A stretch of DNA of 64,000 bases from Candidatus Bathyarchaeia archaeon (GCA_038870595.1 JAVZJU010000002.1:1-64000); one strand, 5' to 3'; positions 41,343 through 61,673 are shown, counted from the stretch's first letter. The notes: generated from the sequence alone by a model not told the origin. Made by a program: numbers and translations.

Positions 41343-41370
41343 TTTTAAAAAAGGAAAACAAAGATAAAAA

Positions 41371-41577: not shown

Positions 41578-41619
41578 AGCTAAACAGCCTTCAATAGGAT
41601 ATAAAAAGATAGGGAAATT

Positions 41620-43671: not shown

Positions 43672-43726
43672 CTAGCAAACCTTTTTCATTCTATGCCATA
43701 TTTTAGCTTTACGGTTTAAAAATAGG

Positions 43727-45397
43727 CTATATAACTCTGTATCGCTCTTTTGGACTAGGCTCCTTTTCAGGTCTCTTCTTGTACCAGACAACAGTAACCC
43801 CGAGGGCTCCAAAAAAGGCTATAGCTGCATATAATTCCCAGCCTGTGCCGGATTCGCTTTGAGCTTGTATTACGGTTACATGTATGTCATGTGATATTGA
43901 TGAGTATAGTCCTTCGTCGTCGAAGACTATGAGGGTGACTGTATAGTCTCCTCCTTGTCCAGTATATGTAAATGTCGCTACTAGTTCTGTTGGCTTGGTT
44001 ATGTTGTAGGCTTGCATTTGGGTTTCTTCCATTTCTCCGTAGAAGTCCCATATGGCGTATACGATTTCTCCGTCTTCATCATACGTGTATCTTTCAGTTT
44101 CTGTGCCATATGCGTTGAAGATGACTTCTTGGTCTGGCATAGGTTGCAGTGGTGTCCATGTAAAGTTGACTATTGGGCGCTGTCCCACAAAGATTATTTT
44201 GCTTGTTGAATTGTAAAGTCCGTCGTTGTCAAAGGCTGTTAGGGTGACGTTGTAAAGGCTGTTTTTGGAGAGGGTGAACGTTACGTTTTCATCCGTCGTG
44301 GTTTCGTTCCAGAACTCAACGGGTACATAGTTTATTTTTACGCCTTTTGGCTTGAATTGTAGGCGGGTTAAGTTCCATAAGTATTGGGTGATGGTTCCAT
44401 CTGGGTCAAAGCTTCCTGTCGCGTTAAGCGTTATTGTTGCATTAGCCCCTATTGGTACGTAGGGGTTTTCAGGGTCGTAAGTGAAGCTTATCTGTGGGGG
44501 AATTCCAACAAAAATTACTTGCGTTTTTGAACTGTTTTGGTTTTCGTTGTCTGTCACCGTAAGGTTGACGTACTTTATTCCGTATGTTGTATATGTGTGA
44601 TTGACGCTTTGCTGGTTTGTTGTTGTGTTTGTTCCGTCTCCAAAGTCCCAAGTGTAGTTTGCAATATAGCCGTCTGGGTCGTAGCTTCCAGAAGCGTCAA
44701 AGGTCACTGGTTGGTTTGGTTTTGGGTATTGGGGCTGCCATGTGAAAGCCGCTATTGGCGGAGATTTAGCCCCATAAACTGTGACTTGGAAGGATTCGGA
44801 TGTAAACGGAATTTCAATTGAATCTGAGTTCCATAAGAAGGAGTCATCGTCATAGTCTGGGCTTCCTGTTGGAATTATGCTCAGCGTGAAGGTTCCTATT
44901 TTTATGGCTGTGAAGTTTATTTGGCAAAGTATTGCCTGAGAAGTTGTTACGGCGTCGTTCCAGTTGAGGAGGCTTGCGCCTAGAAAGACGTAGCCATAGC
45001 CTGGAGGAGCCTTTCGGGGTTGTTGATTATAGATCTCCGGTTGTACCTGCTGTATTTTTTTGTTGTAGAATACGAAGTTTGGGTTGTTTGTGGGTAGCCA
45101 TGCACCTGTACATTTAACTTTGCTATATTCGAAGCTTATTGCCACTTGAAAAGTAACTATGTTTTGTGTTAAACCCGTAAGTGTAACATTCACGGTGAAT
45201 GAATAGCCCCCTAACGGGATGGGAGTGGATTCGTTGCCCAATATGACGCTGTTCTCTCCAGTTTTTGAATCGATAATCCGGATTGTCCTCTCTTGAGCTT
45301 CTGCAAAAAATCTTAATTGGCTGGAAACGGTTAAAAGCATAATTTGACCTAATATCAAAATAATGAGAGCTTTGTTAAGTAATTTCACCATTTTCAC
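43727..45397 (-). CDS. Membrane-anchored surface protein: divergent cohesin-like N-domain + PKD domains + C-terminal TM
   Basis: N-terminal TM. FTVNVTLTGLTQNIVTFQVAISFEY...ILCQINFTAIK resembles the cohesin-like pattern. ANYTWDFGDGTNTTTNQQSVNHT PKD. C-terminal TM plus KKRPEK. Paralog of 52962..54506. Confidence 0.6.
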   Translation of the reverse strand: MKMVKLLNKALIILILGQIMLLTVSSQLRFFAEAQERTIRIIDSKTGENSVILGNESTPIPLGGYSFTVNVTLTGLTQNIVTFQVAISFEYSKVKCTGAWLPTNNPNFVFYNKKIQQVQPEIYNQQPRKAPPGYGYVFLGASLLNWNDAVTTSQAILCQINFTAIKIGTFTLSIIPTGSPDYDDDSFLWNSDSIEIPFTSESFQVTVYGAKSPPIAAFTWQPQYPKPNQPVTFDASGSYDPDGYIANYTWDFGDGTNTTTNQQSVNHTYTTYGIKYVNLTVTDNENQNSSKTQVIFVGIPPQISFTYDPENPYVPIGANATITLNATGSFDPDGTITQYLWNLTRLQFKPKGVKINYVPVEFWNETTTDENVTFTLSKNSLYNVTLTAFDNDGLYNSTSKIIFVGQRPIVNFTWTPLQPMPDQEVIFNAYGTETERYTYDEDGEIVYAIWDFYGEMEETQMQAYNITKPTELVATFTYTGQGGDYTVTLIVFDDEGLYSSISHDIHVTVIQAQSESGTGWELYAAIAFFGALGVTVVWYKKRPEKEPSPKERYRVI

Positions 45398-45495
45398 CCT
45401 TGATTATCTTAAAGTCTCTTGGATAAATGAGATTAAGTTGAATATTTATGTTTGTTGCCCAGAAGGATTTAAAGCGGTATGGAAAAATGGGGGTA

Positions 45496-47685: not shown

Positions 47686-47767
47686 TTTCTTCTCCTCTCC
47701 TCGTTATTACTGCTCACTATTTTGATATAAAGATTCTGGAAATAAATTCTACCGAGAGGATGCCGTT

Positions 47768-50700
47768 CTAGTAATATTTGGCAGTCTTGCCATAGTTGCC
47801 ACAGGCGATGCCGATGTCACGCATATCTACTTTGCCATCATTATTCACATCTTTATTGGGGTCCCAGTTGGGCTTTGACGGGTTTGTTCCGAACTTGTTA
47901 CATATCGCCCCCACATCGCGCATATCCACTTTGCCCTCTGGAACTCCTTGAGCTATGCTTGTTACATCTCCTGAGATTACTATTAGAACCGAACATTTGA
48001 TGTAAAGGTTGTTTGAGATGTTGCCTTCTCCTAAAACCGGCACTGCATAAGCACTAACAGTATAATTTCCATATGCCAAGTTTGTTGTGTCCCAAGATAA
48101 ACTGGTAATTATAGATTGCCCAGGCAGTATCGTTTGGATAAATTTTGTTCCTATGGTCTGGTTGGCATACGTGTTATTGGACCAGTAAACGATTATTTGA
48201 ACATTTGACTCTGTAAAGTTACCGTTATTTTTTGTCGTTACGTAAATTAGGGTTCCATAATCTCTACCTATATATTTTTTCATGGGAATTGGTTTACTTA
48301 GGTTCACGTTTGGTGTGCTAGCTGTAACATTTTCTATACTTATGTCAGCGTATTCTACTCTGATTTGGCAGGATTTACTATTGTCAGACGGGTTTTCATC
48401 CACAATTGGTGGTTGGAGAGTGGCGCTAACAGATATTATGTAATTTCCAGCAGACAGACTTGTCGTGTCTAAATAGATTGTGAGGGTTTGCTGTTTTCCC
48501 CTTCCAAGGTTTATAGAAGTTGTGTAGAAGTTTGTGGTATTGTATGATGCTGTAACACTTATTGTTTCAGTGAATGATCCTTTATTCCATATAGTTGCGT
48601 TGATTGTTGCTGTTTCACCTTTTTTGACCGGCGTCTTTAGAGGTATGACTTTTAAGACGGCTACATCATGGTTTGAGCCTTGTATCGCATAGAGTTTGCC
48701 ATCTTTGGAGGTTACGTATATGATGTCATTTAGTACAGCTGGTGATGAGTCAATTATTCCTCCAGTTTGGTAGCTCCACCAAATTTCGCCACTTTCTTCT
48801 TCTATTGCGTAAAGCCTTCCTGTTGTCGTTCCCACTATAACTTTGCGTTCGGCCACTAGAGGAGATGACCATTTTATTGGTCCAATTTCTTTACTCCAAA
48901 GTAAGTTGCCAGTCAACGCGTTAAGGGCATATAGTTTACCGTCTGTTGAGCCTACAAAAACTGTATTGTCAGCTATCGCTGGTGAAGAGTATATCTCGCT
49001 GTTCGTCGTTAAGTTCCATAAAATTGTGCCAGTTTGGGCGTCTAAAGCATAGATTTTCTTGTCTCTTGAACCTGTGAAAACTCTATCGTTGGCAAACGAT
49101 GGGGATGAGTAGATACCGACTCCTGGTGCTAGGTTTTTCCTCCATAGAATTCCCCCAGTTATTTCATTTAATGCGTATATACTGCCATTTTGGGTTGCCA
49201 CGAACACCTTGCCGCTTGCTGCAGCGGGAGACGTGTAGACCGCTCCGTCGAGGGTGCTTGTCCAGATAGTTGTTCCGTTTATATAAAAGGCGTAGACTTT
49301 TCCATCTGTGGAACCGATAAATACTTTATTACCATAGATGACTGGAGAGGAATAGACTGGACCTCCAGTTGTTATGCTATATTTTACGCTACCATTTGTT
49401 GCATTTACTGCATATACAAGTCCATTTTCTGATCCTATGAAGAGTAAGTTGTCTGTGTAGGCTGGGGAGGAGTAGATTTTGTATCCTGGGGCTGGTGTTG
49501 TTTTCCATATGAGCGCTCCGTTTGTTGCATTAAAAGCGTATAGTGTTCCGTTTATTGACCCTATGAAAACTTTATTTCCAACAATTGCGGGGGAGGATTG
49601 CATCCATTGTTCGGTGCTTGTTGACCCTATTGTTTTTTGCCATTTGGTTGAGTTAGCTGTCGATGCTAACGAGGAGGATGAGCCTTTGTGTTTGGGGTCG
49701 TGGCGGAACATGGGCCAAGCTTCTGTTACTATTACTAGTCTTTCAGTTGAGTTGTATATTCCTTTATTGTTGGTTACTGTTAATTTGACCGTGTAGTATC
49801 CGCCCATGTCGTATATGTGGGTAACTATCTGGCCTTTCGCTGTGGTTCCGTCGCCAAATTGCCATGTATAGTCTATGATGGTTCCGGTTGGGTCGTAACT
49901 TGCTGAGCCGTCGAAGGTGACTGTTTGGCAGACCATTGGATTACTTGGAGAATATGTAAACTGTGGAACGGGCCCTAGAACTAAGAAGCTTTTTATGTCA
50001 ATCGCTGTTGAAATTTGATATTCGGTTGTTGCATATATCACATATTTGTCAGCAGGTATATCCGTTGCTGGGAGTTTAAATGTTACATTAAAGTATTGGG
50101 GTTGCGGTGGCATTGAGGGAGTTGTTGTGCTTATATAGAATTTTGCCTTTTTTTCTGGACAATATGGGGCTCCTAGATTTTTTGGGTAGTCCTTGAATAG
50201 GCTTACTGATACTTGTGCTTCGCCAGTTGGCGCGTGACTTGGTATTGGCATCGAGGAAAGAAGCTTTACGGTTTGACCTCCTTCAATTGTAAAACCTGAC
50301 GTAAAGAATGCTGTTAGGGGTGTGTTATCAGAGCATTGCACATAAACGGCTATTAATACATACCTGTTTACTACGTCGAAGTTTTTTATTGTTATATTGA
50401 GGTAGGCCGTGGTTCCACGGCTAAAAAGGTTCTTTGGTGTTCCTTGTGAGTCGCAGGTGTACATGTCTAAGATTTGTACGCGCCAGTATCTGCCTGAAAC
50501 GTCGCCTGTTTCAACCGTTCTTAAGACAAAGGGGTTTCCGTTTGGGAAGTCTACCTGGATGGCAGCTATTGTGTCGGTTTTTAGTGCTCCGTCCAAGGTT
50601 ACGTTTCCTGTTATTATTACTGTTTCTCCTGCGTTGTAGGTTGGTTTGTTTGTTGTTATGTTTATGTCTAGTATGTAGGCTTTTGCTTGTTGTGTTAATA

Positions 50701-50794
50701 TGCTTATGTGAAGGGTTAGAATTATTAATATTAAGAACGTTGTGATTGTGAGTTTTTTGATTTGGTTTTTTGGGGATGAATTCATAAGCTTCAC
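47768..50794 (-). CDS. Secreted PKD + PQQ-like beta-propeller + CARDB-like protein with C-terminal dockerin
   Basis: YTWQFGDGTTAKG...KLTVTNNKG PKD. Eight or more repeats of the G.LYA.NA.NG...W type (PQQ-like blades). Dockerin GKVDMRD...DVNNDGKVDMRD. Confidence 0.7.
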   Translation of the reverse strand: MKLMNSSPKNQIKKLTITTFLILIILTLHISILTQQAKAYILDINITTNKPTYNAGETVIITGNVTLDGALKTDTIAAIQVDFPNGNPFVLRTVETGDVSGRYWRVQILDMYTCDSQGTPKNLFSRGTTAYLNITIKNFDVVNRYVLIAVYVQCSDNTPLTAFFTSGFTIEGGQTVKLLSSMPIPSHAPTGEAQVSVSLFKDYPKNLGAPYCPEKKAKFYISTTTPSMPPQPQYFNVTFKLPATDIPADKYVIYATTEYQISTAIDIKSFLVLGPVPQFTYSPSNPMVCQTVTFDGSASYDPTGTIIDYTWQFGDGTTAKGQIVTHIYDMGGYYTVKLTVTNNKGIYNSTERLVIVTEAWPMFRHDPKHKGSSSSLASTANSTKWQKTIGSTSTEQWMQSSPAIVGNKVFIGSINGTLYAFNATNGALIWKTTPAPGYKIYSSPAYTDNLLFIGSENGLVYAVNATNGSVKYSITTGGPVYSSPVIYGNKVFIGSTDGKVYAFYINGTTIWTSTLDGAVYTSPAAASGKVFVATQNGSIYALNEITGGILWRKNLAPGVGIYSSPSFANDRVFTGSRDKKIYALDAQTGTILWNLTTNSEIYSSPAIADNTVFVGSTDGKLYALNALTGNLLWSKEIGPIKWSSPLVAERKVIVGTTTGRLYAIEEESGEIWWSYQTGGIIDSSPAVLNDIIYVTSKDGKLYAIQGSNHDVAVLKVIPLKTPVKKGETATINATIWNKGSFTETISVTASYNTTNFYTTSINLGRGKQQTLTIYLDTTSLSAGNYIISVSATLQPPIVDENPSDNSKSCQIRVEYADISIENVTASTPNVNLSKPIPMKKYIGRDYGTLIYVTTKNNGNFTESNVQIIVYWSNNTYANQTIGTKFIQTILPGQSIITSLSWDTTNLAYGNYTVSAYAVPVLGEGNISNNLYIKCSVLIVISGDVTSIAQGVPEGKVDMRDVGAICNKFGTNPSKPNWDPNKDVNNDGKVDMRDIGIACGNYGKTAKYY

Positions 50795-50880
50795 ACCTAA
50801 TATTTTCTGAAGGTTTGATTTAGCTTTTATTTTTGTTTTTACACAAAAAATGGGGGTGTTGGTGGGGTTTGGCGTTTATT

Positions 50881-52839
50881 TTATGGTTTGACTATGTAGA
50901 AGTCTATGGTGTTGGTTACTTCTGGGCAGTAGGGTACTCCGCCGTTCCATGGGAATTTGTCGAAGGCGTTGGCGAAGACTTTTCCTTTGCCTACTACGGC
51001 GTTGGTTGGTAGTGGTATGACTGGTTCCCATGGGTCATATGTCTTGAAGGGTGGTGTTTCGCATGCTAGGTAGTCGTAGTATATGTATTCGCCCCATCCT
51101 ACCTCTGTTTGCAGGTAGTCTGAGCCTATGAAGAATCCTAGTTCGTCGTAGACGGTTACTGTTAGGGTTACGTTGAGCTTTTGCATGCTGTAGGTTCCAT
51201 ATATTACTGTGAAGTCTAATGGGTCTCCGCCTGTCTTGCGTTGCACGTACTGCGTGTGTTTGGGTTCAACGCTTAAGACGTCCACCTTCCACCATACCCA
51301 GAAGCCTAAGGTGTCATTAACTTTTTGTTGGGCTACTTCAACTGTGGCTATTACGCGCCATTTGCCGAAGATTTCGTCTTCTGGGTTTTCGCATGGCCAT
51401 GGTATCCTGAAGGATACATGGGCTATGCCGTTTTGGTCTGTTGTTGCTTCTCTATATATGTCGTAGCCGTTGTGAATTATGTGGAAGCCTACAAGCTTCT
51501 GTTGTACTGGATACTCATTGTATTCTACTTTCGCGAATAGGTCAACAAGCTCTTGTGGCGCGAACATGTCGCTGGGCATGTGTGGGCCTTGTCCGCCATA
51601 TGGGCTTGGGTATTGCGTGTACAGGTCTATTTTGAGACCGAGAATCCTCATTGGCGCCCTGTAGTGGCAGTCCACCGTCGAGCTTGATATGGCCATCATG
51701 TACTGGTTTAATGCGTATGTGTCTTCGTCGAATTTGAAGTCTATAAACTCGATCCAAGTCCAATCTTCTTTGGGTGATATTGTTTCGTAGATGGCTTTGA
51801 AGTAAACCGTCATCAGCCTTGCTCCGTCAGGTCCAACACTTACGAATGGCGGGTGATATGGTTCGGCAGGTGGACTGTCTGGCAATAGTATGGCGCCAAA
51901 CATTGAGTAGTTGTAGCCGTCTGGAATCGGTGTTAATGGCGGTGGCCTGTTATGCTGGTTTATGTCTGCTACATACATGACTCCGCCTGGGTAGTATTGG
52001 AATGCCTCTAGAAGTGTTCCATTCGCATAGTACATGCCCGTGGGACCTGGGTCTGGCACTATGAAGGTTGTGTTCCACATGAGGCTGAACTGGAAGCCTA
52101 TTATCTCCCAGCCTGCAGCAACATTTTTAACCCATATTTCAAGTCCGAAGACGTCGCCTATCTTTTCTGGTTTGCAGACGGCTGGCTTAATGAAGAATGT
52201 TGGGTAGTAGGGTGGAGCAACCCACTCATACTTGTAGTGGGCATCAACCCCTGTGAAGGTAATGTCATAGCCAGCACCGTTCAATAGGAATGTGCTTTCG
52301 CCCTCCCCTGCAATTTGAATGTCGCACTCCAAAACCTTTGGTGAAATTTGAGAAACTCCTTTTTTAACCTTCAATTCCAGCCTGAAGAGGGTTCCAGTGC
52401 CGTTGAAAGTCCAGTAGGGGTCATTGATGTATGTGCAACCCCAAACAAACATGCCTGTTCCTATTGTCGGGGTTGGAGTTATCATCGACCTTGCAGCTCC
52501 GGCGAAAACATGGTCTGCTGGAAGCTCATGACCAGCGTACTCAAGGAGCGATCCATCCCATGTTACGTTAACTTGCCACAGTTGCAGGTCGGTTACATCC
52601 CTAACAGTGATGTTTACCCAGAAAGTACCCCCGACGCCGATCATCTCTGATGTGAAGTAGAACAGATGATCTCCGTCTGTAGGATCAACAACCTCAACAG
52701 TTGTCCCGGGCTCAGCTTTACCAGAGGGTACAAAGACCAGCAGTGTGCTTAATGTCAGTAGAACAGCCAATGTGATACTAGAAAGTTTGCTAAATTTCCT
52801 TTCCATTTTCTCCCTTCTCCTTCTATTCAGCAATATCAA
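50881..52839 (-). CDS. Secreted protein with two cohesin-like modules and a large uncharacterised domain
   Basis: Signal peptide (likely start MERKF). GGTFWVNITVRDVTDLQLWQVNVTWDGSLLEY...WGCTYINDPYWTFNGTGTLF, and a second module GDVFGLEIWVKNVAAGWEIIGFQFSLMW. No TM and no dockerin. Confidence 0.6.
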   Translation of the reverse strand: MILLNRRRREKMERKFSKLSSITLAVLLTLSTLLVFVPSGKAEPGTTVEVVDPTDGDHLFYFTSEMIGVGGTFWVNITVRDVTDLQLWQVNVTWDGSLLEYAGHELPADHVFAGAARSMITPTPTIGTGMFVWGCTYINDPYWTFNGTGTLFRLELKVKKGVSQISPKVLECDIQIAGEGESTFLLNGAGYDITFTGVDAHYKYEWVAPPYYPTFFIKPAVCKPEKIGDVFGLEIWVKNVAAGWEIIGFQFSLMWNTTFIVPDPGPTGMYYANGTLLEAFQYYPGGVMYVADINQHNRPPPLTPIPDGYNYSMFGAILLPDSPPAEPYHPPFVSVGPDGARLMTVYFKAIYETISPKEDWTWIEFIDFKFDEDTYALNQYMMAISSSTVDCHYRAPMRILGLKIDLYTQYPSPYGGQGPHMPSDMFAPQELVDLFAKVEYNEYPVQQKLVGFHIIHNGYDIYREATTDQNGIAHVSFRIPWPCENPEDEIFGKWRVIATVEVAQQKVNDTLGFWVWWKVDVLSVEPKHTQYVQRKTGGDPLDFTVIYGTYSMQKLNVTLTVTVYDELGFFIGSDYLQTEVGWGEYIYYDYLACETPPFKTYDPWEPVIPLPTNAVVGKGKVFANAFDKFPWNGGVPYCPEVTNTIDFYIVKP

Positions 52840-52961
52840 TTTTGTCGCTAGTAAAATTTAAGGATTCCGGAATTATCTTCTATCCAAAACAAAAATAAGC
52901 ATGCATCAACATTTTAATTCAAGATAAACTAAAAACACAAAAGCCCAAGGAGGACAAACAC

Positions 52962-54506
52962 GTGCAAAAAAGGCGGACATCAACAATAATAATCATTGCG
53001 GCAATCCTATCTATTGGAATCCTGTCCCAGTCGCTAAATCTTCAATCCTTAGCACAAACACGTGTAATAAAGATTGCTGATATGAAAACAGGCTCAAATT
53101 TCATAACCCTCGGAAGTCAAAGTAATCCAATACCTTTAGGCGGATACCAATTCACGGTTAACGTCACCCTAGAAGGCCTAACAAACAACCTTTACGTTTA
53201 TCAAATCGCAGTTAAATTTGACAAAGACAAAATTCGCTGCACATCCGCGTGGATAAACAGAAACGACCCAAATTTTGTCTTCTACTCCCACAAAAGCCTC
53301 ACCTACATTCCACCCGCTGCCATAGACAACACTGAAGGATACGTGGTTTTAGGCGCCTCATTGATAGGCGACCGCCAAGTAGACGTTTCAAAGGGGCTGT
53401 TATGCCAAATAAACTTCACAGCCATAAAAAAGGGCGAAACACAAATTGAACTCATTCCAACTGGTTACGAACCCTACGACACATTTTTAGGATACTTTGA
53501 AGACGATAATTTAAGGTACATATCCTTCACAACAGAGAACTTTAACTGTATAGTTCAAGCATCACAAACTCCACCATTAGCTTCATTCACATTTAACCCA
53601 AAAAACCCCGAAGCAAACCAACCAGTGACCTTTGACGCTTCTGGAAGCTACGACCCAGACGGCTATATTGCAAACTACACTTGGGACTTTGGAGACGGAA
53701 CAAACACAACAACAAACCAGCAAAGCGTCAATCACACATTCACATCGAACGGCGCCTACAACGTCACGCTGACAGTTTACGATAATAGCACCCGCAGCAG
53801 TTCAACACGCGAAGAAGTGCAGGTGGGACGCCTCCCTATCGTTAAATTTACATATCAACCCGCCCAAATACAACCGTTCCAACCAGTTACATTCAACGCC
53901 GCCGAAAGCCAAGACCCCGATGGAACAATAGCCAGATACGTCTGGAATTTTGGAGACGGCAACACGACAACCACTTACACCCATCAAATAACACACATCT
54001 TCAATAGCAGAGGCGCTTTCAGAGTTAATTTAACAGTTTATGATAATGAAGGACTACACAACTCAACGGCTAAAGAAATTTTTGTTGGAAAACCCCCATC
54101 TCCAAACTTCACCTACACCACTCCGCGAGCCGTCGAAGACTACTTTATCGTAACCTTTAATGCATCACAAAGCCAAGCTGGAGAAGAAGATGGCTATATT
54201 GTTTCCTACGTGTGGGATTTCGACGACCACATCGGCATAGTAGAAACACAATCTCCAATAATAGAACACATTTACATGGAGGGAGACTATGAGGTAAAAC
54301 TCACAGTTTACGACAACAACGGATTACACAATTCAATCACAAAAACTATAAAAGTTAAGGTAGAGAAAACGAAAGAAACGAATGGAACAGATATAACAAT
54401 CTACCTCGTCGCAGCTGCGGCCGCGATATTAGTTATTATTGTGGTGTTAAAACTGGTTAGAAAAAAATCCACATCTATAAAACAAAAGAAGAAAAAGAGA
54501 AAGTAA
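52962..54506 (+). CDS. Membrane-anchored surface protein: cohesin-like N-domain + 3-4 PKD domains + C-terminal TM/KKKKRK (paralog of 43727..45397)
   Basis: N-terminal TM. YQFTVNVTLEGLTNNLYVYQIAVKFD...LLCQINFTAIKKG. WDFGDG / WNFGDGN PKD motifs. C-terminal TM. Confidence 0.6.
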   Translation: MQKRRTSTIIIIAAILSIGILSQSLNLQSLAQTRVIKIADMKTGSNFITLGSQSNPIPLGGYQFTVNVTLEGLTNNLYVYQIAVKFDKDKIRCTSAWINRNDPNFVFYSHKSLTYIPPAAIDNTEGYVVLGASLIGDRQVDVSKGLLCQINFTAIKKGETQIELIPTGYEPYDTFLGYFEDDNLRYISFTTENFNCIVQASQTPPLASFTFNPKNPEANQPVTFDASGSYDPDGYIANYTWDFGDGTNTTTNQQSVNHTFTSNGAYNVTLTVYDNSTRSSSTREEVQVGRLPIVKFTYQPAQIQPFQPVTFNAAESQDPDGTIARYVWNFGDGNTTTTYTHQITHIFNSRGAFRVNLTVYDNEGLHNSTAKEIFVGKPPSPNFTYTTPRAVEDYFIVTFNASQSQAGEEDGYIVSYVWDFDDHIGIVETQSPIIEHIYMEGDYEVKLTVYDNNGLHNSITKTIKVKVEKTKETNGTDITIYLVAAAAAILVIIVVLKLVRKKSTSIKQKKKKRK

Positions 54507-54538
54507 ATTCTCAAAAGTTGGAAACTGTTTAACTATTT

Positions 54539-55723
54539 CTATTTGCTTACTGCGTAGCAAGCAACAAAATGCCCGTCACCAACATCAACCAGCTTAGGTT
54601 CTGAACTCTTACAAACATCCATGGCTTTGGGACATCTCGGATGGAATCTACAACCGGGAGGGGGATTAACAGGACTCGGAACCTCACCAGTAATGGGTGG
54701 ACGCTCCCTTCTCTTTGTTGGATCTGGAATTGGAATAGCTGCAAACAACGCTTGTGCATAAGGATGCAGAGGCTCTTTGTAGAGCGTTTCAGTTTTTGCT
54801 AGCTCCACAATTTTACCAAGATACATAACAGCTACTCGGCGACTTATACATTCAACAACGCTTAAGTCGTGGCTTACAAACATGTAGGTGATGCCTAGCC
54901 TCTTTTGAAGATCTTGGAATAAGTCTAGAAGTTGGGCTCTAACTGAAACATCGACAGATGATGTGGGCTCATCTAAAACAATGAATGCAGGACGTGTGAT
55001 AATTGCCCTTGCAACGGCAATCCTTTGCCTTTGACCTCCGCTGAACTCATGTGGATACCTATAAAGATGCTTTTCAGTTAAGCCCACGTTTTCAAGCGCC
55101 TCAACAACCATATCATAGACTTTTCGTCCAGTGGCTATTCCCTGTGCAACGATTGGCTCAGCGACTATGTCCTTAACAAGCATTCTGGGATCCAGCGATG
55201 TTGTTGGGTCCTGGTAGACTATTTGCATAAATCTCCTCAACTTTCTCAATGATGAGAATGAGGCTTTCGTTAAGTCGTATTGCCTATGACGGGGGATTTT
55301 GTCCCGCAAATAGGAAATTAGTTCCTGTTCTTTCATGTTCCTAACTTTGGTAACTTCATCTTTGGATAGATATTTCATGCCATAGCTTTTTATAGCATTC
55401 TTAAACTTTTCAGAAACCGCTTTAGCGCGCTTTGGATCTGAAGTTTTTGCTTCCTCCTCAAGCCTTTCAATTTCCAGAAATTCGTAATTGGGTGCATTAA
55501 ATATTATTTTTCCATCGTTTGGTTTGTAAAGCCTTAGGATAGTTTTTCCCAGCGTTGTTTTTCCACATCCAGATTCTCCCACTACTCCGAAGGTTTCGCC
55601 TTTAAATATTTTGAAGGACACTCCGTCAACTGCTTTAACTTCGGCTACTTTCCTTTTCAAAACGCCGCCGAGGATGGGGAAGTATTTTTTAAGATTCTCA
55701 ATTTCTAGAAGGGTAGTTTCCAC
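54539..55723 (-). CDS. Oligopeptide/dipeptide ABC transporter ATPase (OppF/DppF-like)
   Basis: GESGCGKTT Walker A, LSGGQRQR signature, C-terminal oligopeptide-type extension with [12 protein letters not shown]. Confidence 0.85.
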
Positions 55724-55725
55724 TT

Positions 55726-56889
55726 TTATTCCTCCACTTTAGTATATAAGTGGCATGCAACTTCGTGTCCTTTTTCTACTTCAACAAGATTCGGCTTAAC
55801 TTTTCGGCATATTTCCATAGCGTATGCGCATCTCTCATGAAATCTGCATCCAGGAGGCGGGTTGATCAGGCTTGGAACAGTGCCTGGTATAGAGACAAAG
55901 GGGTGGCCTGGTCTCGGTATTGACTGTAGTAAAGCTTGCGCATAGGGGTGTAGGGGTTTCTTGAAGAATGTCATAACATCTGCAACTTCAACAACGTTTC
56001 CAGCATACATGACTGCAACTCTTTCGCATAGCTCTGCAACCACGCCCAAGTCGTGCGTCACATATAATATTGATGAGCCAAATTTGTCTCTAAGTTCCTT
56101 TATAAGATGTAATATTTGCATCTGCACCGTAACATCGAGGTTTGTGGTGGGCTCGTCGGCTATCAATAATGTTGGATTGCATGTTAACGCCATTGCAATT
56201 ACAACTCTTTGGGCCATGCCGCCGCTTAATTCGTGGGGGTACATGTCAACAACCCTTTCAGGGTCGGGGATTCTGAGAATCCTGAGAAGCTCAACTGTTT
56301 CTTTTCTAACAACCTGTTGAATTCTTTTCTTGAATCCTCTTAATAGAGGGATTTTTGAGGCCATTCTAACGGTTAGTGCTTTGGGGTTTCGTAACATTTT
56401 ATTTAGCAACGATAAGTGGCGTTTGTAAAGCCATCTCTTCGTTCCCCTAGCGGTTTTAAGGCTTTCTTCAACGTTGTGTATGGCTTTTTTTGTGATTTCT
56501 TCCATTCGGTGGTGATAGAAAACTTCAGCGATTTGATCGCCTACTGTGTAGACTGGGTTTAATGCTGCTCTTGGTTCCTGGAATATCATTGAGATGTATC
56601 TGCCTCTTATTTTTAGAAGTTCGCTGGTTTTCAGATGCAGCAGGTCAAGCTCCTTTTCCTCTGTATTGAATTTTATACTACCCTTTTCTATGCTTCCGGG
56701 CGATATTACCATCGCTAGCATTGATAGGCTTGTTACGCTTTTTCCACATCCTGTTTCGCCCACTAGTCCTAGGACTTCGCCTTTTTTGATGTAAAGTTTT
56801 ACTCCGTCAAGGGCTTTTACAATTCCGTCGTAGGTGTAGAAGTTTATGTACAGATCCCTTATTTCAGCGATGGTTTCTTTTTCTTCCAA
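55726..56889 (-). CDS. Oligopeptide/dipeptide ABC transporter ATPase (OppD/DppD-like)
   Basis: GETGCGKS Walker A, LSGGMAQR signature, C-terminal [11 protein letters not shown]. Confidence 0.85.
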
Positions 56890-56894
56890 GGCTT

Positions 56895-57860
56895 TTATCT
56901 CCTCCTATACAATGGATCCAATATGTCCCTGAAGGCGTCGCCTAACAAGTTCCATCCCAAGCAGAACAAGGTTATGAATAGCCCCGGATACATAAAAGTC
57001 CACCAATACTTAAATCCATACGTGGCCCAGTTTATTGACATATTGATTAGCTGTCCCCAGTCGGCATATCTTGGCGGAGCTCCGAGGCCGAGGAAACTTA
57101 GAGCTGCCGCAAAGAGCACTATGGAACCAAAGTCGAGGGAAGCCACAATTATTACCGGGTATATGGCGTTTGGAAGTATATGCCGCGTTATTATTCTAAG
57201 GTCTGATGCTCCTGACGCTTTTGCGGCTTCAATGTAGTCTTCTGTTCTTACTCTTAAAACTTCGCCTCTAATAAGCCTTGTATATGAGGGCCATCCAACA
57301 AGTATGATTGAAAGGATTGCAGCGTCTATTCTTGTCCATTGGCCGGTTCTTGTCAGGGTTACGATTAAAGCCATCGTTAATATGAGCCCGGGAAATGCTA
57401 GGATTATGTCTGTGAAGCGCATTATTATTTCGTCTATTATTCCGCCATAGTATCCCGCAATTGTTCCTAAGGTTATTCCTATTGCGAGGATTGCGGGGAT
57501 TATTAGTAGGCCTAGTCTGAATGCGTAGATTGTTCCCCATATGCAGCCGTAGTACAAGTTTATGTTTAATGGTGTTATTCCGAAGGGGTACTCTGAACTT
57601 GGTGGTTGCGGAAGCTGATATATTTTGTTTTCGCGTAACGGTGGGATTTCAAAGGGATCTCTTAGAGGTGTTCCAAAATCGGGATGAATTGGGGGTGCTA
57701 AAACTGGCGCTAGTATGGCTACGAAAGCAAAGAAAATCACCAGTCCTAACCCTATGAGGGATAACGGAGTTTCGATTATCCTTTTCAGTGTGAATTTTAA
57801 CTCTTTTATTCTGGGTTGCATCCTTCTCTTGAATTCTGAAACCTTTTTTTCTTTGGCCAT
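56895..57860 (-). CDS. ABC transporter permease (OppC/DppC-like)
   Basis: Six TM segments and an EAA-like loop (AAKASGASDLRII). Confidence 0.8.
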   Translation of the reverse strand: MAKEKKVSEFKRRMQPRIKELKFTLKRIIETPLSLIGLGLVIFFAFVAILAPVLAPPIHPDFGTPLRDPFEIPPLRENKIYQLPQPPSSEYPFGITPLNINLYYGCIWGTIYAFRLGLLIIPAILAIGITLGTIAGYYGGIIDEIIMRFTDIILAFPGLILTMALIVTLTRTGQWTRIDAAILSIILVGWPSYTRLIRGEVLRVRTEDYIEAAKASGASDLRIITRHILPNAIYPVIIVASLDFGSIVLFAAALSFLGLGAPPRYADWGQLINMSINWATYGFKYWWTFMYPGLFITLFCLGWNLLGDAFRDILDPLYRRR

Positions 57861-57862
57861 CT

Positions 57863-58903
57863 TTACCCCAACCTTATTCTTGGATCTATATAGGCGTAAA
57901 GAATGTCTACTATCAAGTTGGATATGACGAAAATTATGGCTGAAAAGAAGGCGTATGCTATTACAATAGGTACATCCATAGCTATAGCCGCGTAGGCAGC
58001 CCAGTTTCCTATTCCGCCAAAACGGAAAACAGTTTCTGTTATTGTTAGTCCTGTTAACATGCCGCTTACGAGGAGCCCTGAAATTGTTACGACTGGGATT
58101 AGGGCGTTTCTTCTTGCATGTTTGTAGATTACTTCTTTTCTTGATAGTCCTTTTGCCCTTGCTGCAACAATGTATGTTTTGCTTAATGCTTCGAGCATGC
58201 TTGACCTCGTTACTCTAACCATTGTGGCGGATTGGATGAAGACTAAAACGGTAACCGGTAATATTAGGTGCTTTAACGCGTCTAGGAAGGTTGCAAAGTC
58301 TCCATTTATGAGGGAGTCTATTGTTATTAGTCCTGTATATTCTCGAATTTGCCCGGTGCTGATTCCGAGTAAGTACTTTCCAATGTTTGTTAGCCTTCCA
58401 GTAGTTGTCCATCTTAACTGGGCTACAAATATGCTGATTAGTATGACTCCGAAGAAGAAGGATGGGAGGGAAGTCCCCAATATTGAGGCTACTCTTGAAA
58501 CGTGGTCTGGGAGTTTGTCACGGTTTGCGGCTGAAACTGTGCCAAGCCATATTCCGAAAAACACTATTATTGGAGCGCTATATAGCACTATTTCTAGTGT
58601 TGCCGGAAACCTTTTGGCAAAGCCTTCTAAAACTGGTTCGCCGCCGTATATCTCTGAGTATCCAAAATTTCCCTGAAACATTTGGGTAATCCAGTTGTAG
58701 AATTGGACAAAAACAGATTCGTTTAAACCGTACTGTTTTATGACGATGTCTATTTGGCGGAACTGCTTAGGGTCTGTTATATAAATTGATGCTCTTGCTT
58801 CTGGGGGGATAAGCTGCATCACGGCGAAAATTAGAAGTATGACACCAAATAGTACAGGGATTAAAAGTAACAGTCTACGGATAATGTATTCCCTTAAGCC
58901 CAT
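57863..58903 (-). CDS. ABC transporter permease (OppB/DppB-like)
   Basis: Six TM segments and the EAA-like motif EALSKTYIVAARAKG. Confidence 0.8.
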   Translation of the reverse strand: MGLREYIIRRLLLLIPVLFGVILLIFAVMQLIPPEARASIYITDPKQFRQIDIVIKQYGLNESVFVQFYNWITQMFQGNFGYSEIYGGEPVLEGFAKRFPATLEIVLYSAPIIVFFGIWLGTVSAANRDKLPDHVSRVASILGTSLPSFFFGVILISIFVAQLRWTTTGRLTNIGKYLLGISTGQIREYTGLITIDSLINGDFATFLDALKHLILPVTVLVFIQSATMVRVTRSSMLEALSKTYIVAARAKGLSRKEVIYKHARRNALIPVVTISGLLVSGMLTGLTITETVFRFGGIGNWAAYAAIAMDVPIVIAYAFFSAIIFVISNLIVDILYAYIDPRIRLG

Positions 58904-59045
58904 ACTAATCCCTTTGTTAAAGAAGTTTGAGGAATTTATAACCTTGTCGCATTAAATGTGTGGTTTGGGTTGAGTAAAAGAAGTTCTTACTAATTTTGGT
59001 TCTATTGGCACAAAAAAGGGGGGGAGGTTTACGGTGAATACAGTT

Positions 59046-61673
59046 TTATGGTTGGGTTGTATGTCCGAAGTGTTTGCTGGCTAAGCCTATGTCTCTCATG
59101 TCGATTTTGCGGTCTCCGTAGATGTCTGAGCCTCCGCAGCCATATGTGCCTGGGGCCCATCTAGGATCGTATGGTGGTGTTGCGGCTGGGTCTGGTGCTT
59201 TTGCTCCGAAGTGTTTGGATATGTAGCCTATGTCTCTCATGTTGCATACTCCGTCAGGTATGCCTACTGTGGGGCCTGTTATGTCAGCCCAGCATGCAGG
59301 GCTTGGTTGTGGAACTGTTGGATTTACAGCTTTGTATTGTTTGTAGAAATACGCTGACGGGTATAGGCCGTTGTAGTACCAGCCTTTCAGCCAGTACTTT
59401 TGCCATCTTCTTCCTGTGGTTTGGATTATTGGGAAGCTTGGGCAGTCGGCGATGTAGATGTCGTCTAGGTCTGCGTAGTATGTGGCTCTTTGTGGGCCGT
59501 CTGGTGTTTTAACTGCTATGTCTATTAGTTGGTCTTTGTTTAGGTGTGTTCTTGGGCCGAGTGTTCCGCACCATCCGTTCCAAGCTGTGTAGTTTTGGTA
59601 GTAGCTGAAGTCTCCGTAGCTGTGCATGTATGGGCGGACCCAGTTGTCGGCGTCTGCAAAGTCTGCCAGCCAGCCGATTAAGTATAATGGCATTTCATAG
59701 GCTTCCAGCATTTCTAGGTATGTTGCCCAGTCTGGTCCTTGAACTTCAATTATGAAGCTTTTGCCGTACTGGCTGTTTATGGCGTCGAAGGCTGCTTTTA
59801 TGTATTCGCATGCCAGCCTTCTCGGGTCGTTGCCGCTGTTGTAGTAGATGATCATTTTGAAGCCGCCCCAATCCCAGACGCTCTTTGTTTCGCCGTCTTG
59901 TGTGAACATGGCTTGTTGAAGTTCAGTCTTTATCTTTTCTAGGTCGTAGTTGTAGGTCCATGGTGGGTCTGGCTTCTTTGTATAGTAGTCTGGCACTAGA
60001 CCGTAGATTAGTGGTGTTTCTCTGCATATGCCCTCGTCCATCCAGACGTCGTGTATGTATTTGCCGTGGTCGAATGCGTAGGCGAAGGCCCTCCTAGTGT
60101 GGGTGTTGTTGAAGAAGTCTGTTGGTATGCCGTCTGGGAACCTTCCGCTGTATATGGCTGGCGATTCTGGACTGATGGTGAATGTGAAGAATACTGCGTC
60201 CATGGCTAGTACTGGCGATATGTTCTTTATCGTTATTATTGCAGGGTCTATTGTTATCATTCTAGCCGGGTCGTTGGGGTCTAGGAGCTCCATCATGTTG
60301 GCTCTTGGCACGGCACAGACGTCCAGCTGGCATGCCAAGAAGGCTGTTTTTCTGGTGGTCCAGTCTGCAATGTATTCTATGTCTACGTATTCGAGGTAGC
60401 CTGGCAGGCGGACCAGTTCACCTGTGCTCTGAACCGTGTAGAAGGGTGCTGGCCAGCCTCTCCAGTAGTTGGGGTTCCTCTGGAGCACCACTAGGTTTTG
60501 GGCTGCGCTTGCAACCACAACTCTGTAGGGGCCTGTACCGGCATAGTTTTCAGGCTTTATAGACTGGATTGGTGAGACGTAGCCGAAGGCTATGCAGTGG
60601 CGCCATGACTCAAACCAGTCTGGTATGCCGTTTTCTGCCACTGAGCCTGTATAGCGTCCGTCGTCGCTGAAGAGTTCATCGTCCCAGCATCCCTTGCCCA
60701 TACACCAGTCTTTGTCCAATATTGATGCCCATGTTTGGCTCATGATTTGTTTGAAGGCTGCATCTGGGAAGGTTATTCCCAGGTTGAAGCGTACAATTGG
60801 TGGGTCTGGGTCTGTGCTGACAATTTCAATGGCGCTATCTATCAGGAATGAGAGTTCCAGCGCATCTTCTGGGTTGCCTGTGTCCCAGAAGTCGCTGTTC
60901 ATTTGGTCGAAGAAGGGTTTGTAGAACATCCACATGGGGCTGCCGTACTGGTCTTGGACAAGTCCACGCCTGAAGGAGTATAAAACGTCGCCGATGTCGA
61001 ATTGACCCACAACGTTGCCATCTTTATCATAGAAGAATATCGCAGGGTCTGTTCTTAATCGGAAGTCGTAGTAGAAGCGGTGCGCCACTATCTTTCCAAT
61101 GTTGGCATCGACGCTGATGGTTTGCCATGTGCGGATTTTAGTATTTCCACCCTCTACCCCTCTTACGTAGATGACATCAACTGGGCCGAAAACTCCGTCT
61201 GGGTTGTTGTCAACCCAGCCGACAATTTCAAAGGCTGAGTTGTTCAAATATATACCGGTAGGGTCTGCTGGAATTGGCACAGTATCGCTCATGAACGTAG
61301 CAATTATTTCTTGGCGGTTTGGAACGTTTACGGCTAAGCGTGGTCTGAACTCCCAATACTGCTCTTCAACATCCCATACAATGCCCGGATACAACGGGTT
61401 GACAACATCGCCGCCCATCTCAATCAAAGTATCATAAACATTGAAAAGCAGCTCGCCGCTGGCCGTATCATAAGCCCTCACAGGGTCAGCTCGCCTGGGA
61501 CCCCAAGCAATAGTCCCTTCATATATCGTTGTCGGATCATAATTTTCTGGCTGTGGTGGACCGGTAGCAAATACAGGAGCAAACACTGGAATTAGAAGTG
61601 CAGCTGTAGCAACTAATGCGAACAAACTTGCCTTCTTCATATCTCTCCTTCTCCCATTTTCCAATTTCCGCAA
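59046..61673 (-). CDS. Family-5 ABC substrate-binding protein (Opp/Dpp/Nik type), unusually long, with C-terminal dockerin
   Basis: Signal peptide (MKKASLFALVATAALL), SBP_5-like core (LQRNPNYWRGW), several insertions giving 875 aa, and a C-terminal PDGVCNMRDIGYISKHFG...DIYGDRKIDMRDIGLASKHFG dockerin. First gene of the opp operon. Confidence 0.75.
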   Translation of the reverse strand: MRKLENGRRRDMKKASLFALVATAALLIPVFAPVFATGPPQPENYDPTTIYEGTIAWGPRRADPVRAYDTASGELLFNVYDTLIEMGGDVVNPLYPGIVWDVEEQYWEFRPRLAVNVPNRQEIIATFMSDTVPIPADPTGIYLNNSAFEIVGWVDNNPDGVFGPVDVIYVRGVEGGNTKIRTWQTISVDANIGKIVAHRFYYDFRLRTDPAIFFYDKDGNVVGQFDIGDVLYSFRRGLVQDQYGSPMWMFYKPFFDQMNSDFWDTGNPEDALELSFLIDSAIEIVSTDPDPPIVRFNLGITFPDAAFKQIMSQTWASILDKDWCMGKGCWDDELFSDDGRYTGSVAENGIPDWFESWRHCIAFGYVSPIQSIKPENYAGTGPYRVVVASAAQNLVVLQRNPNYWRGWPAPFYTVQSTGELVRLPGYLEYVDIEYIADWTTRKTAFLACQLDVCAVPRANMMELLDPNDPARMITIDPAIITIKNISPVLAMDAVFFTFTISPESPAIYSGRFPDGIPTDFFNNTHTRRAFAYAFDHGKYIHDVWMDEGICRETPLIYGLVPDYYTKKPDPPWTYNYDLEKIKTELQQAMFTQDGETKSVWDWGGFKMIIYYNSGNDPRRLACEYIKAAFDAINSQYGKSFIIEVQGPDWATYLEMLEAYEMPLYLIGWLADFADADNWVRPYMHSYGDFSYYQNYTAWNGWCGTLGPRTHLNKDQLIDIAVKTPDGPQRATYYADLDDIYIADCPSFPIIQTTGRRWQKYWLKGWYYNGLYPSAYFYKQYKAVNPTVPQPSPACWADITGPTVGIPDGVCNMRDIGYISKHFGAKAPDPAATPPYDPRWAPGTYGCGGSDIYGDRKIDMRDIGLASKHFGHTTQP

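Follow-up and report, generated by a model that had tools for sequence, protein, structure and literature searches.

The substrate-binding protein (SBP) that heads an Opp-type ABC importer operon in a Candidatus Bathyarchaeia archaeon ends, as judged by sequence profiles and structural models, in a real but divergent dockerin, and we consider it reasonably probable (about 60%) that this domain serves as a non-covalent surface tether by plugging into a cohesin of a neighbouring surface protein. The gene lies in a 64,000-nucleotide stretch of DNA (GCA_038870595.1, JAVZJU010000002.1:1-64000; hereafter the window) that also encodes several cohesin- and dockerin-containing proteins. Docking onto a cohesin is the best-supported reading because the dockerin is C-terminal, because its position is that of the membrane anchor in close relatives and because the cohesin/dockerin neighbourhood is conserved.

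The receptor gene and its operon

The SBP gene, its parts and the remainder of the operon are as follows.

59046..61673, minus strand: SBP gene (intact ORF, Pfam SBP_bac_5, NCBI identity, AF2 and Foldseek)
61566..61640, minus strand: Sec signal peptide, probably cleaved (M12-A36; MKK, hydrophobic core, PVFA/TG)
59334..61565, minus strand: SBP body (residues 37-780; Pfam, AF2, Foldseek)
59301..59333, minus strand: short Pro-rich linker (residues 781-791, AVNPTVPQPSP)
59049..59300, minus strand: divergent dockerin, the A1-type tail (residues 792-875, 84 aa; profile, hhalign, AF2/Foldseek)
59205..59285, minus strand: dockerin repeat 1 (Ca-loop DITG[PTVGIP]DGVCNMRD, then helix IGYISKHFG)
59061..59126, minus strand: dockerin repeat 2 (loop DIYGDRKIDMRD, then helix IGLASKHFGH)
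58904..59045, minus strand: SBP-oppB spacer of 142 nt, containing the oligo-T tract CCCCCCCTTTTTTG
57863..58903, minus strand: oppB permease (Pfam BPD_transp_1, E=2.7e-35, and BPD_transp_1_N)
56895..57860, minus strand: oppC permease (Pfam BPD_transp_1, E=4.9e-35, and OppC_N)
55726..56889, minus strand: oppD ATPase (Pfam ABC_tran and oligo_HPY)
54539..55723, minus strand: oppF ATPase (Pfam ABC_tran and oligo_HPY)

The ORF runs without internal stops to a stop codon at 59046..59048, encodes 875 aa if translation begins at the TTG at 61673, and is 100% identical to the NCBI entry 'MAG: ABC transporter substrate-binding protein [Candidatus Bathyarchaeia archaeon]'; the interruption by a stop codon that the earlier note had named as grounds for doubt is therefore absent. 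The ATG at 61640 (M12, 864 aa) is more likely to be the true start, since it is preceded by GGAG at 6-9 nt and by a TTTATATA box at ~50 nt, and homologues begin at the corresponding MKKASLF. From this methionine the protein would carry a signal peptide that is removed upon export, and its homologues share this n-h-c layout, positions -1 and -3 being occupied by small residues. At 22 aa the hydrophobic stretch is long and could instead be an uncleaved anchor. A lipobox was ruled out because the signal peptide has no Cys close to its end, and a class III (pilin-like) signal peptide of the Sulfolobus type was ruled out by eye because the residues past the KK motif do not resemble the class III cleavage pattern. 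As previously claimed for this gene, lipobox and transmembrane (TM) anchor are lacking: neither a C-terminal TM helix nor a lipobox cysteine was found in the SBP or its 120 best homologues. An NCBIfam search of the SBP and the cohesin proteins added nothing.

The SBP gene is the first of a tightly spaced oppBCDF operon, an arrangement that is conserved, and because all four downstream genes carry the expected Pfam domains, the description of 54539..61673 (minus strand) as a complete oppABCDF-type operon stands. It is conceivable from its sequence that the oligo-T tract CCCCCCCTTTTTTG acts as a partial archaeal terminator and so yields an excess of SBP transcript. At one related locus (L085) OppC is 848 aa long owing to a ~570-aa extracellular insertion; this was considered as a 'Rosetta stone' and rejected, as no profile used gave a cohesin or dockerin signal in it.

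Pfam SBP_bac_5 (PF00496) matches residues 218-687 (E=9.2e-35, 120.9 bits, cut-off 32.4), and Foldseek searches with the full-length AF2 model (pLDDT 93, pTM 0.91) returned DppA, GbpA, OppA, MppA and NikZ at E~1e-24 with TMt of 0.67-0.81 (6ofq, 3m8u and 1dpe among the matches). The modelled body is thus a full two-lobed cluster-C fold with DppA/OppA topology, which shares fold and Pfam family with these five proteins at only 12-17% identity and differs from them by ~230 aa of body insertions, part of which is a beta-rich region (approximately residues 84-224), and by the dockerin tail. A GW.AD motif aligns with GbpA and H. pylori DppA. The substrate is likely to be peptides, given that three members of the family are fused to subtilase S8 domains and that the nearest solved folds are peptide binders. 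The earlier note had described the protein as ~300 aa longer than typical. This is correct relative to solved DppA/OppA structures (474-602 aa) but not relative to the protein's own family, in which ~800 aa is the norm. Most of the extra length has nothing to do with docking, as the ~230 aa are body insertions partly common to bacterial relatives without any dockerin.

A divergent dockerin in the place of a membrane anchor

The tail consists of two internal repeats, NMRDIGYISKHFG and DMRDIGLASKHFG, which form a tandem duplication of a ~22-residue segment, each copy an EF-hand-like loop with a helix behind it (helices at residues 812-820 and 859-867 in the model). Loop 1 carries a 6-residue insertion, also seen in Bathyarchaeial dockerins that score with Pfam, and its ligand positions 1, 3, 5, 9 and 12 (D, T/S, D, N/D and D) are kept in 39-54 of the 54 homologues examined. 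In loop 2 the same homologues retain D1 (54), D5 (51), N/D9 (52) and D12 (52), with Tyr instead of Asn/Asp at position 3 in 45 of them, and a family-specific 12-residue insert (APGTYGCGG...) precedes repeat 2. The conserved ligand positions speak for a two-repeat dockerin that would probably bind Ca2+, and the loop 1 insertion and the loop 2 Tyr speak against the tether reading.

Pfam Dockerin_1 (PF00404) scored the isolated tail at 12.2 bits (E=0.22), below its cut-off of 22.9, found nothing in the full-length SBP and produced sub-threshold matches in 12 of the 54 homologous tails (best 0.0026). These weak scores could speak for a chance resemblance, in which the D-rich loops would be a low-complexity coincidence and the tail unrelated to dockerins. 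Against this, every sensitive test, by sequence or by structure, returned dockerins only. A profile of the 54 tails searched against 177,635 PDB sequences matched dockerins exclusively (best E=6.7e-4); hhalign paired it with canonical Bathyarchaeial dockerins, two of them from the window, at 99.7% (E=3e-25), and the profile of these canonical dockerins (A2) itself matches PDB dockerins (4.5e-10). When the AF2 model of the tail (pLDDT 85) was searched against the PDB with Foldseek, the top 19 matches were all dockerins, the best being 4wi0_B (probability 1.00, TMq 0.64, rmsd 2.4 A), and the model superposes on type II dockerins. Together with the internal duplication typical of dockerins, these results effectively refute coincidence, to which we assign almost no weight. 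The earlier description of the tail as a two-loop C-terminal dockerin is upheld by internal repeats, profile, hhalign and Foldseek alike. The refuting outcome that the earlier note had named, a tail that does not score as a dockerin by HMM, did occur in the literal sense with Pfam Dockerin_1, and the more sensitive profile comparisons identified a dockerin. A motif scan of the window yielded exactly three dockerin-bearing ORFs.

Contrary to the impression that such a tail is peculiar to this gene, virtually all proteins of a large SBP family in Bathyarchaeia end in it; several paralogues occur per genome, and among 1.84 billion representatives searched the A1 subtype was restricted to this family. 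The tail is at least as conserved as the SBP body (identity to the query is 57% for the tail and 51% for the body, and the tail is the higher of the two in 65 of 78 homologues), which indicates that it is under constraint. Bacterial relatives, which are 25-31% identical, can be aligned over residues ~200-781 (some over 8-781) and terminate just before the tail position with neither a dockerin nor a TM helix. Two family members that lack the tail (L022 and L023) have in its stead, from the same residue, ~782, a spacer, a TM helix and RKRG. The dockerin of the SBP therefore occupies the place of the membrane anchor in close relatives.

The same comparisons bear on a different explanation, namely that the tail is a domesticated structural module: a dockerin-derived, Ca2+-stabilised C-terminal subdomain that would not bind cohesin, with the receptor retained by an uncleaved N-terminal anchor or beneath the S-layer. 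The linker at residues 781-791 is particular to this SBP (low alignment occupancy and conservation, 0.14; pLDDT drops to 77), the tail being fused directly to the body in most homologues, and because the full-length model is in addition rigid (pTM 0.91), the cohesin-binding face of the tail could be occluded. The N-terminal hydrophobic segment of 22 residues, modelled as a helix, would suit such retention, as would the non-canonical loop 2 suit a loss of binding, and no cohesin lies within 10 kb of ~13 orphan SBPs that bear the tail. Furthermore, ~10% of the family have a spacer and a canonical dockerin (in one case a cohesin too) appended behind a retained A1 tail, which would be redundant if that tail already anchors the protein and so leaves room for a structural role. 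In these members, on the other hand, the profile match of the internal tail ends at position 69-78 of 82, so that part of the final helix and of the terminal HF.H...P motif is missing, consistent with functional replacement. The structural reading also fits poorly with the TM anchor that tail-less relatives possess at the same position, with the family-wide retention of both repeats and nearly all Ca ligands, and with the tight operon-cohesin synteny described below, which holds in both directions and across three dockerin subtypes. On balance we regard a purely structural tail as unlikely, though it is the alternative to tethering that we take most seriously.

Cohesin genes next to the operon

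The genes beyond oppF encode cohesin proteins, among them candidate partners for the tail, and a further dockerin-bearing protein.

52962..54506, plus strand: candidate membrane anchor, cohesin-PKD-TM (Pfam PKD; hhalign to cohesin profile A4)
50881..52839, minus strand: operon-linked conserved cohesin protein, ~640 aa (cohesin profile A4; synteny)
47768..50794, minus strand: dockerin-bearing cargo protein (PKD, PQQ/BamB-like beta-propeller, CARDB, C-terminal dockerin)
45496..47685, minus strand: adaptor-like protein (cohesin modules, CARDB, canonical dockerin)
43727..45397, minus strand: paralogue of 52962..54506 (cohesin-like module, PKD domains, C-terminal TM helix)
41620..43671, minus strand: membrane-anchored protein (two cohesin modules, Ig-like domains, C-terminal TM helix)

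Single-sequence PDB searches of the cohesin-like neighbours returned PKD domains or nothing, and profiles were required. Cohesin profile A4, to which module 1 of 50881..52839 belongs, matched cohesins exclusively in the PDB (best E=6.7e-8). The product of 50881..52839 comprises a signal peptide, this cohesin module, a second cohesin-like module in the middle (81% to A4, E=1.3e-5) and a 255-aa C-terminal domain for which no sequence relatives were found in the PDB; it has no TM helix, no dockerin and no recognisable membrane anchor, a point against the tether reading. That of 52962..54506 consists of a signal peptide, an N-terminal cohesin-like module, PKD domains, a C-terminal TM helix and a Lys-rich tail, and its N-terminal module aligned to A4 in hhalign at 97.6% (E=4e-12), while a direct PDB match to this module was not found. 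Its paralogue 43727..45397, in which Pfam detects PKD, is 43% identical to it over 504 aa by BLASTP. Pfam recognises both a cohesin (E=7.8e-10) and Dockerin_1 (E=6.7e-7) in 45496..47685, and the two modules of 41620..43671, both part of A4, are 62-64% identical to the cohesin module that Pfam scores in that protein. The tail of 47768..50794 scores below threshold with Dockerin_1 (E=5e-4) and belongs to profile A2. Pfam finds no glycoside hydrolase or carbohydrate-binding module in any protein of 36414..61673, which marks the cohesin-dockerin system here as non-cellulosomal, nor does it find a protease gene in this cluster.

The link between receptor and cohesin extends well beyond the window. 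A cohesin gene follows oppF in all six GTDB Bathyarchaeia loci that contain the SBP with oppBCDF and a downstream flank, and likewise in L001, L003, L005 and L006. Orthologues of 50881..52839 lie directly after oppF in L001, L005/L015, L006, L007, L018, L024, L029, L083 and L084, and after the SBP gene in L085; orthologues of 52962..54506 adjoin the operon in L001, L003, L006, L007 and L083. In the reverse direction, three of three distant orthologues of 50881..52839 (31-44% identity) are found directly after an Opp operon, and the SBPs of these operons all end in dockerins, of three different subtypes. At least 10 further SBP/cohesin pairs come from contigs of matching length, and the two genes of each pair probably lie on the same contig. 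Where the earlier note had proposed 41620..43671 and 45496..47685 as binding partners, synteny favours 50881..52839 first and then 52962..54506 and 43727..45397.

Under the tether model, the SBP would be the extracytoplasmic receptor of an Opp/Dpp-type importer that, once exported by way of its cleavable signal peptide, has neither a covalent nor a TM anchor. Its two-repeat dockerin, fused almost rigidly to the body, would plug into a cohesin module of a surface protein from the same conserved neighbourhood, be it the double-cohesin protein 50881..52839, the cohesin-PKD-TM proteins 52962..54506 and 43727..45397, or both kinds, and the receptor would thereby be held at the surface of a presumably outer-membrane-less cell within reach of the OppBC permease. 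In one genome, several orphan SBP paralogues with the A1 tail coexist with apparently a single permease operon beside the cohesin cluster, which raises the prospect that the cohesin is a common socket for interchangeable receptors. Tentatively, then, Bathyarchaeia may have set aside a Pfam-invisible dockerin subtype for one receptor family and added the cognate cohesin as a sixth opp gene, giving a plug-in 'receptor socket' that exchanges paralogous SBPs, some of them subtilase-fused; we hold this wider proposal to be possible and less secure than tethering itself.

It could also be that the SBP is mainly a subunit of an extracellular 'peptidosome', analogous to a cellulosome, where it would concentrate substrate and not shuttle it to OppBC. 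In favour of this, the window encodes adaptor and cargo proteins of the sort that characterise assemblies of many components, fusions to S8 subtilases, or to a cohesin together with a dockerin, occur in the family, and many SBP paralogues are orphans. Yet the SBP gene heads a complete, tightly spaced and conserved oppBCDF operon, its body is a full two-lobed SBP of DppA/OppA topology, and the cluster has no protease gene. This role, which is compatible with tethering and does not exclude it, strikes us as improbable as the main one, more so than a structural tail.

Relation to known systems and implications

Archaeal Opp-type SBPs with C-terminal TM anchors, Gram-positive lipoprotein OppA and the permease-fused SBPs of OpuA and GlnPQ illustrate how monoderm cells tether receptors near the translocator. 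In contrast to these, the tether proposed here would be non-covalent, modular and exchangeable among paralogous receptors, and TM-anchored versions occur inside this very family (L022 and L023). Another archaeal solution is the Sulfolobus bindosome (Bas system), in which sugar-binding proteins with class III signal peptides are assembled at the surface in a pilin-like manner. It resembles the present case in organising several binding proteins in a surface structure, but by an entirely different mechanism, and neither Bas-like genes nor a class III signal peptide were seen here.

The best matches in structure and sequence for the tail and the neighbouring cohesins are type II (X-)dockerin/cohesin pairs of cellulosomal scaffoldins, such as Acetivibrio thermocellus CipA XDoc-SdbA (2b59) and A. 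cellulolyticus ScaA XDoc-ScaB (4wi0/4u3s). As in type II XDoc, the dockerin abuts the preceding module without a long linker and would have a role in cell-surface anchoring. Unlike the type II scaffoldin pairs, the system here lacks glycoside hydrolases, an X-module and an SLH anchor, and its cargo is a transporter receptor; relative to type II dockerins, the tail has six more residues in loop 1, twelve more in the inter-repeat linker and Tyr at position 3 of loop 2.

The SBP-dockerin architecture itself is already known, as NikA/OppA- and TroA-type SBPs with dockerins are 'common' in ANME archaea (Chadwick et al. 2022, PLoS Biol, PMC9012536), and the Bathyarchaeia subtype is a variant of it. 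In both cases a dockerin is borne by an archaeal importer SBP, and the genomes encode many non-cellulosomal cohesin and dockerin proteins. The ANME lineages belong to the phylum Halobacterota and not to Bathyarchaeia, and their SBP dockerins are presumably canonical, having been detected by standard domain annotation, whereas the subtype here is derived and missed by Pfam; this distinction is drawn from description and not from sequence comparison. A further difference from ANME is that the Bathyarchaeia dockerin occurs in a single SBP family only and goes with a conserved cohesin gene beside the operon. Literature searches on Bathyarchaeota/Bathyarchaeia dockerins and on dockerin-bearing solute- or substrate-binding proteins brought up the ANME sentence and no account of the present family.

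Interest in the finding is tempered by this ANME precedent, by the family-wide and not singular occurrence of the tail, and by cohesin binding being deduced. Since standard annotation misses the A1 dockerin, counts of dockerin-bearing proteins for these genomes are too low. Bathyarchaeia rank with the most abundant archaea of sediments and are regarded as consumers of detrital protein, which would make their main peptide-uptake receptors ecologically relevant. To our knowledge, lipid and TM anchors are the only means of receptor retention known in archaea without an outer membrane. If the tether model is true, cohesin-dockerin pairing would be a third, modular and non-covalent way to hold the receptors of ABC transporters. 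The many 'enigmatic' genes for non-cellulosomal cohesins and dockerins in archaea would then gain a definite role, and a cohesin-dockerin system would here serve chiefly to take up nutrients and not to degrade polymers.

The substrate-binding protein and its opp operon

The substrate-binding protein (SBP) is encoded by a single uninterrupted reading frame, free of the stop codon whose possible presence the earlier note had raised, and translation from its TTG start yields 875 aa identical to a deposited Candidatus Bathyarchaeia MAG protein that is annotated there merely as 'ABC transporter substrate-binding protein'. The ATG at 61640 (M12) is more likely to be the true start than the TTG, given the GGAG preceding this codon, the TTTATATA box ~50 nt upstream and the homologues that begin with MKKASLF at this point. 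A signal-like sequence is present at the N-terminus of all of the 120 best homologues, and the n-h-c pattern of the window protein suggests cleavage after PVFA.

Receptor gene and transporter genes
59046..61673, minus strand: SBP_bac_5 receptor with the C-terminal tail under study (residues 792-875)
142-nt spacer containing an oligo-T tract, between the SBP gene and oppB
oppB, oppC, oppD and oppF, 3' of the SBP gene with 2-5 nt between them: expected domains, including oligo_HPY

The earlier note's claim of a complete operon is confirmed, since oppB, oppC, oppD and oppF are all present with the expected domains. The SBP_bac_5 domain spans residues 218-687 (Pfam, E=9e-35), and a full-length AlphaFold2 model of the protein built from 79 homologues (pLDDT 93, pTM 0.91) matches DppA, GbpA, OppA, MppA and NikZ (Foldseek E~1e-24; TM 0.7-0.8 relative to the targets). 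Compared with solved relatives of 474-602 aa, the receptor is indeed ~300 aa longer than typical. Bacterial relatives from Thermotogae, Anaerolineales, Chloroflexota and other groups (25-31% identity) can be aligned over the body but end at residue ~781, right before the tail, which argues that ~230 aa of this extra length belong to an enlarged body that predates the dockerin fusion.

Our best guess is that the substrate is peptides. Among solved structures, those closest in fold bind peptides, and a GW.AD motif lines up with its counterpart in GbpA and H. pylori DppA, the Asp of this motif presumably being the contact for the ligand amino group in DppA/OppA. Moreover, three family members with the same tail (P0128, P0138 and P0140) are fused to a subtilase S8 domain and are protease-receptor chimeras; that of P0128 carries a fervidolysin-type propeptide and sits within the N-terminal region, with the SBP body partly lost. 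Oligosaccharides would be a conceivable, less favored alternative, since some archaeal Opp-type systems transport sugars.

Nature and distribution of the C-terminal tail

The earlier note had read the tail as a two-loop dockerin, a reading to be dropped if the tail did not score as one by HMM. With Pfam Dockerin_1 the tail formally fails, as the whole protein gives no match and the isolated tail, at 12.2 bits (E=0.22), stays below the threshold of 22.9, but three independent, more sensitive tests recover a dockerin. When 54 homologous tails were combined into a profile (A1) and compared with all PDB sequences, seven matches at E<=10 resulted, every one a dockerin (best 5k39_B, E=6.7e-4). This profile aligns end-to-end (hhalign probability 99.7%, E=3e-25) with a second one, A2, built from 11 canonical Bathyarchaeial dockerins including the Pfam-detectable pair of the window (45496..47685 and 47768..50794), which itself matches PDB dockerins at 4.5e-10. 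Lastly, when the tail was modeled by itself with AF2 (pLDDT 85), its 19 best Foldseek PDB matches were all dockerins, headed by the type II X-dockerin 4wi0_B (probability 1.00, TM 0.64, rmsd 2.4 Å).

The tail also possesses the internal duplication typical of dockerins (NMRDIGYISKHFG and DMRDIGLASKHFG), with calcium-ligand positions kept across the family (loop 1, D/T-S/D/N-D/D; loop 2, D/Y/D/N-D/D). Three features set it apart from the canonical form. Loop 1 carries a six-residue insertion, which Pfam-scoring dockerins from this lineage share; another 12 residues (W..GTYG.GG) are inserted ahead of repeat 2; and in loop 2, ligand position 3 is occupied by Tyr. Profiles and models together point to a genuine though derived dockerin, which we name A1-type, and we consider the structural description of an SBP ending in such a module to be nearly certain. 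In most homologues the tail joins the body without a linker, while the window SBP has an 11-residue Pro-rich insert; its rigid full-length model recalls type II X-dockerins.

The A1 module directly follows the SBP body in all but one of the 120 best homologues, the sole exception being a sequence that ends short of its C-terminus. These homologues are ~800 aa long, belong to Bathyarchaeia wherever the organism is named and include none with a C-terminal hydrophobic helix; the tail is conserved at least as well as the body. Searched exhaustively by HMMER against 1.84 billion cluster representatives, the A1 profile matched 479 proteins at E<=0.001, whose scores show a sharp break. Approximately 34 matches were full-length and high-scoring, all inspected ones being members or fragments of the SBP family, and those under the break are canonical dockerins aligned without the insertion. 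When one genome per GTDB species was scanned, tail-covering matches were confined to Bathyarchaeia. Individual MAGs harbor several SBP loci, one of them at least seven and a second one four. Judged from these sequences, the A1 tail is a family trait and not a peculiarity of the window gene.

Alternative C-terminal endings and the cohesin neighborhood

The strongest clue to function comes from within the family. Two Bathyarchaeial members with 38-42% identity (loci L022 and L023) lack the tail; past residue ~782 a spacer of ~100 aa leads to a hydrophobic helix of 20 residues and then RKRG, an ending that we take to be the classical archaeal C-terminal membrane anchor. Dockerin and TM anchor are thus alternative C-termini at one position within the family. 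In approximately one family member out of ten, the A1 module is retained and followed by a CARDB-like spacer and a canonical dockerin, with one member adding a cohesin too. The end of A1 (second helix and HF.H...P terminus) is partly missing in variants with an appended canonical dockerin, a loss that would fit replacement; the two dockerins may recognize distinct cohesins, or else A1 is not what anchors these proteins. One protein, P0088, consists of SBP, A1 tail, Cohesin and Dockerin_1, and could itself serve as an adaptor scaffold.

The stretch 41620..54506 is densely packed with cohesin and dockerin genes. Three of the encoded cohesin proteins are TM-anchored, and alongside them are an adaptor, a secreted protein with two cohesins and a beta-propeller that bears a dockerin.

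Genes of the cohesin/dockerin cluster
52962..54506, adjoining the operon: signal peptide, cohesin-like module, PKD stalk and C-terminal TM helix
50881..52839: signal peptide followed by a clear cohesin, a second module that is cohesin-like, and 255 aa forming a domain without recognized fold
47768..50794: dockerin-bearing PQQ/BamB-like beta-propeller protein
45496..47685: cohesin-CARDB-dockerin adaptor
43727..45397 and 41620..43671: two further TM-anchored cohesin proteins

No glycoside hydrolase or CBM was found among the Pfam domains of the cluster proteins, and the cluster is therefore non-cellulosomal, unlike a cellulosome. The same operon-cohesin layout surrounds SBPs just 46-82% identical to that of the window. 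A cohesin gene lies directly 3' of oppF in all six GTDB Bathyarchaeia loci having SBP and oppBCDF with downstream flank, and in five of the six it is an orthologue of 50881..52839, which has >100 full-length orthologues. In the reverse test, three distant orthologues (44, 40 and 31% identity) picked on long contigs were each immediately preceded by an Opp operon whose SBP ends in a dockerin. The three dockerins differ in subtype: A1-type, canonical and divergent. The pairing of a dockerin-bearing Opp receptor with an adjacent cohesin protein thus outlasts change of dockerin subtype. Approximately 13 tail-bearing SBP paralogues are orphans, as no permease gene and no cohesin lies within 10 kb of them; these may be extra receptors using one shared permease and socket, an arrangement whose shared permease is known from multi-OppA systems.

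The product of 50881..52839, the partner favored by synteny, has no recognized membrane anchor. Its residues 396-652 are its most conserved part (73% pairwise identity over residues 396-520) and have no sequence relative in the PDB; a short stretch of this domain is similar to an N-terminal part of 47768..50794 and to small dockerin proteins of related loci. An ORF of 80 aa that stands alone and is annotated with Dockerin_1 lies ~2 kb upstream of the SBP gene on the most closely related contigs (L001:7805-8047 and L002:2171-2413). The 848-aa OppC of another Bathyarchaeial operon (L085:1514-4060) has ~570 aa inserted on the extracellular side, between TM1 and TM2; comparison of this insertion with cohesin and dockerin profiles detected no similarity.

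The window encodes further surface proteins, namely a 1019-aa protein that combines four PKD domains with InlB B-repeats and an Ig domain and has a TM helix at its C-terminus (36414..39473, minus strand) and NosD/beta-helix proteins (39553..40833, plus strand; 826..1965, minus strand), whose genes recur beside the opp-cohesin cluster in other Bathyarchaeia loci. Elsewhere, rpoA (18540..22361, minus strand) directly follows rpoB (22363..25728, minus strand) as a single 1273-aa ORF with Rpb1 domains 1-5; RpoA is split into A' and A'' in most archaea, and the undivided form serves as a lineage marker. The large subunit of methylmalonyl-CoA mutase and the MeaB GTPase are encoded at 4507..6189 and 6645..7592 (plus strand), with a Cys/Met-metabolism PLP enzyme upstream (3216..4478), and 26323..27387 (plus strand) has a weak Peptidase_C39-like/BtrH_N match (E~2e-6).

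A putative receptor tether

The earlier note had interpreted the receptor as docked on a cohesin scaffold. The dockerin tail, the TM-anchored endings of relatives and the cohesin neighbors lend this reading partial support, the key interaction is one that we infer, and we give a cohesin-dockerin tether, in which a surface protein encoded near the operon would hold the SBP, a probability of roughly 0.6. Dockerin-bearing SBPs of NikA/OppA and TroA type have precedent in ANME archaea, for which Chadwick et al. (PMC9012536) describe them as common. We found no description of an SBP-dockerin fusion in Bathyarchaeia in the literature searched, and four features appear to be new: a derived dockerin subtype that standard annotation misses, its exclusivity to one expanded SBP family, its alternation with a TM anchor, and the conserved cohesin gene adjoining the opp operon. 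The tether hypothesis is clean and testable, and it touches on how the archaeal cell surface is organized.
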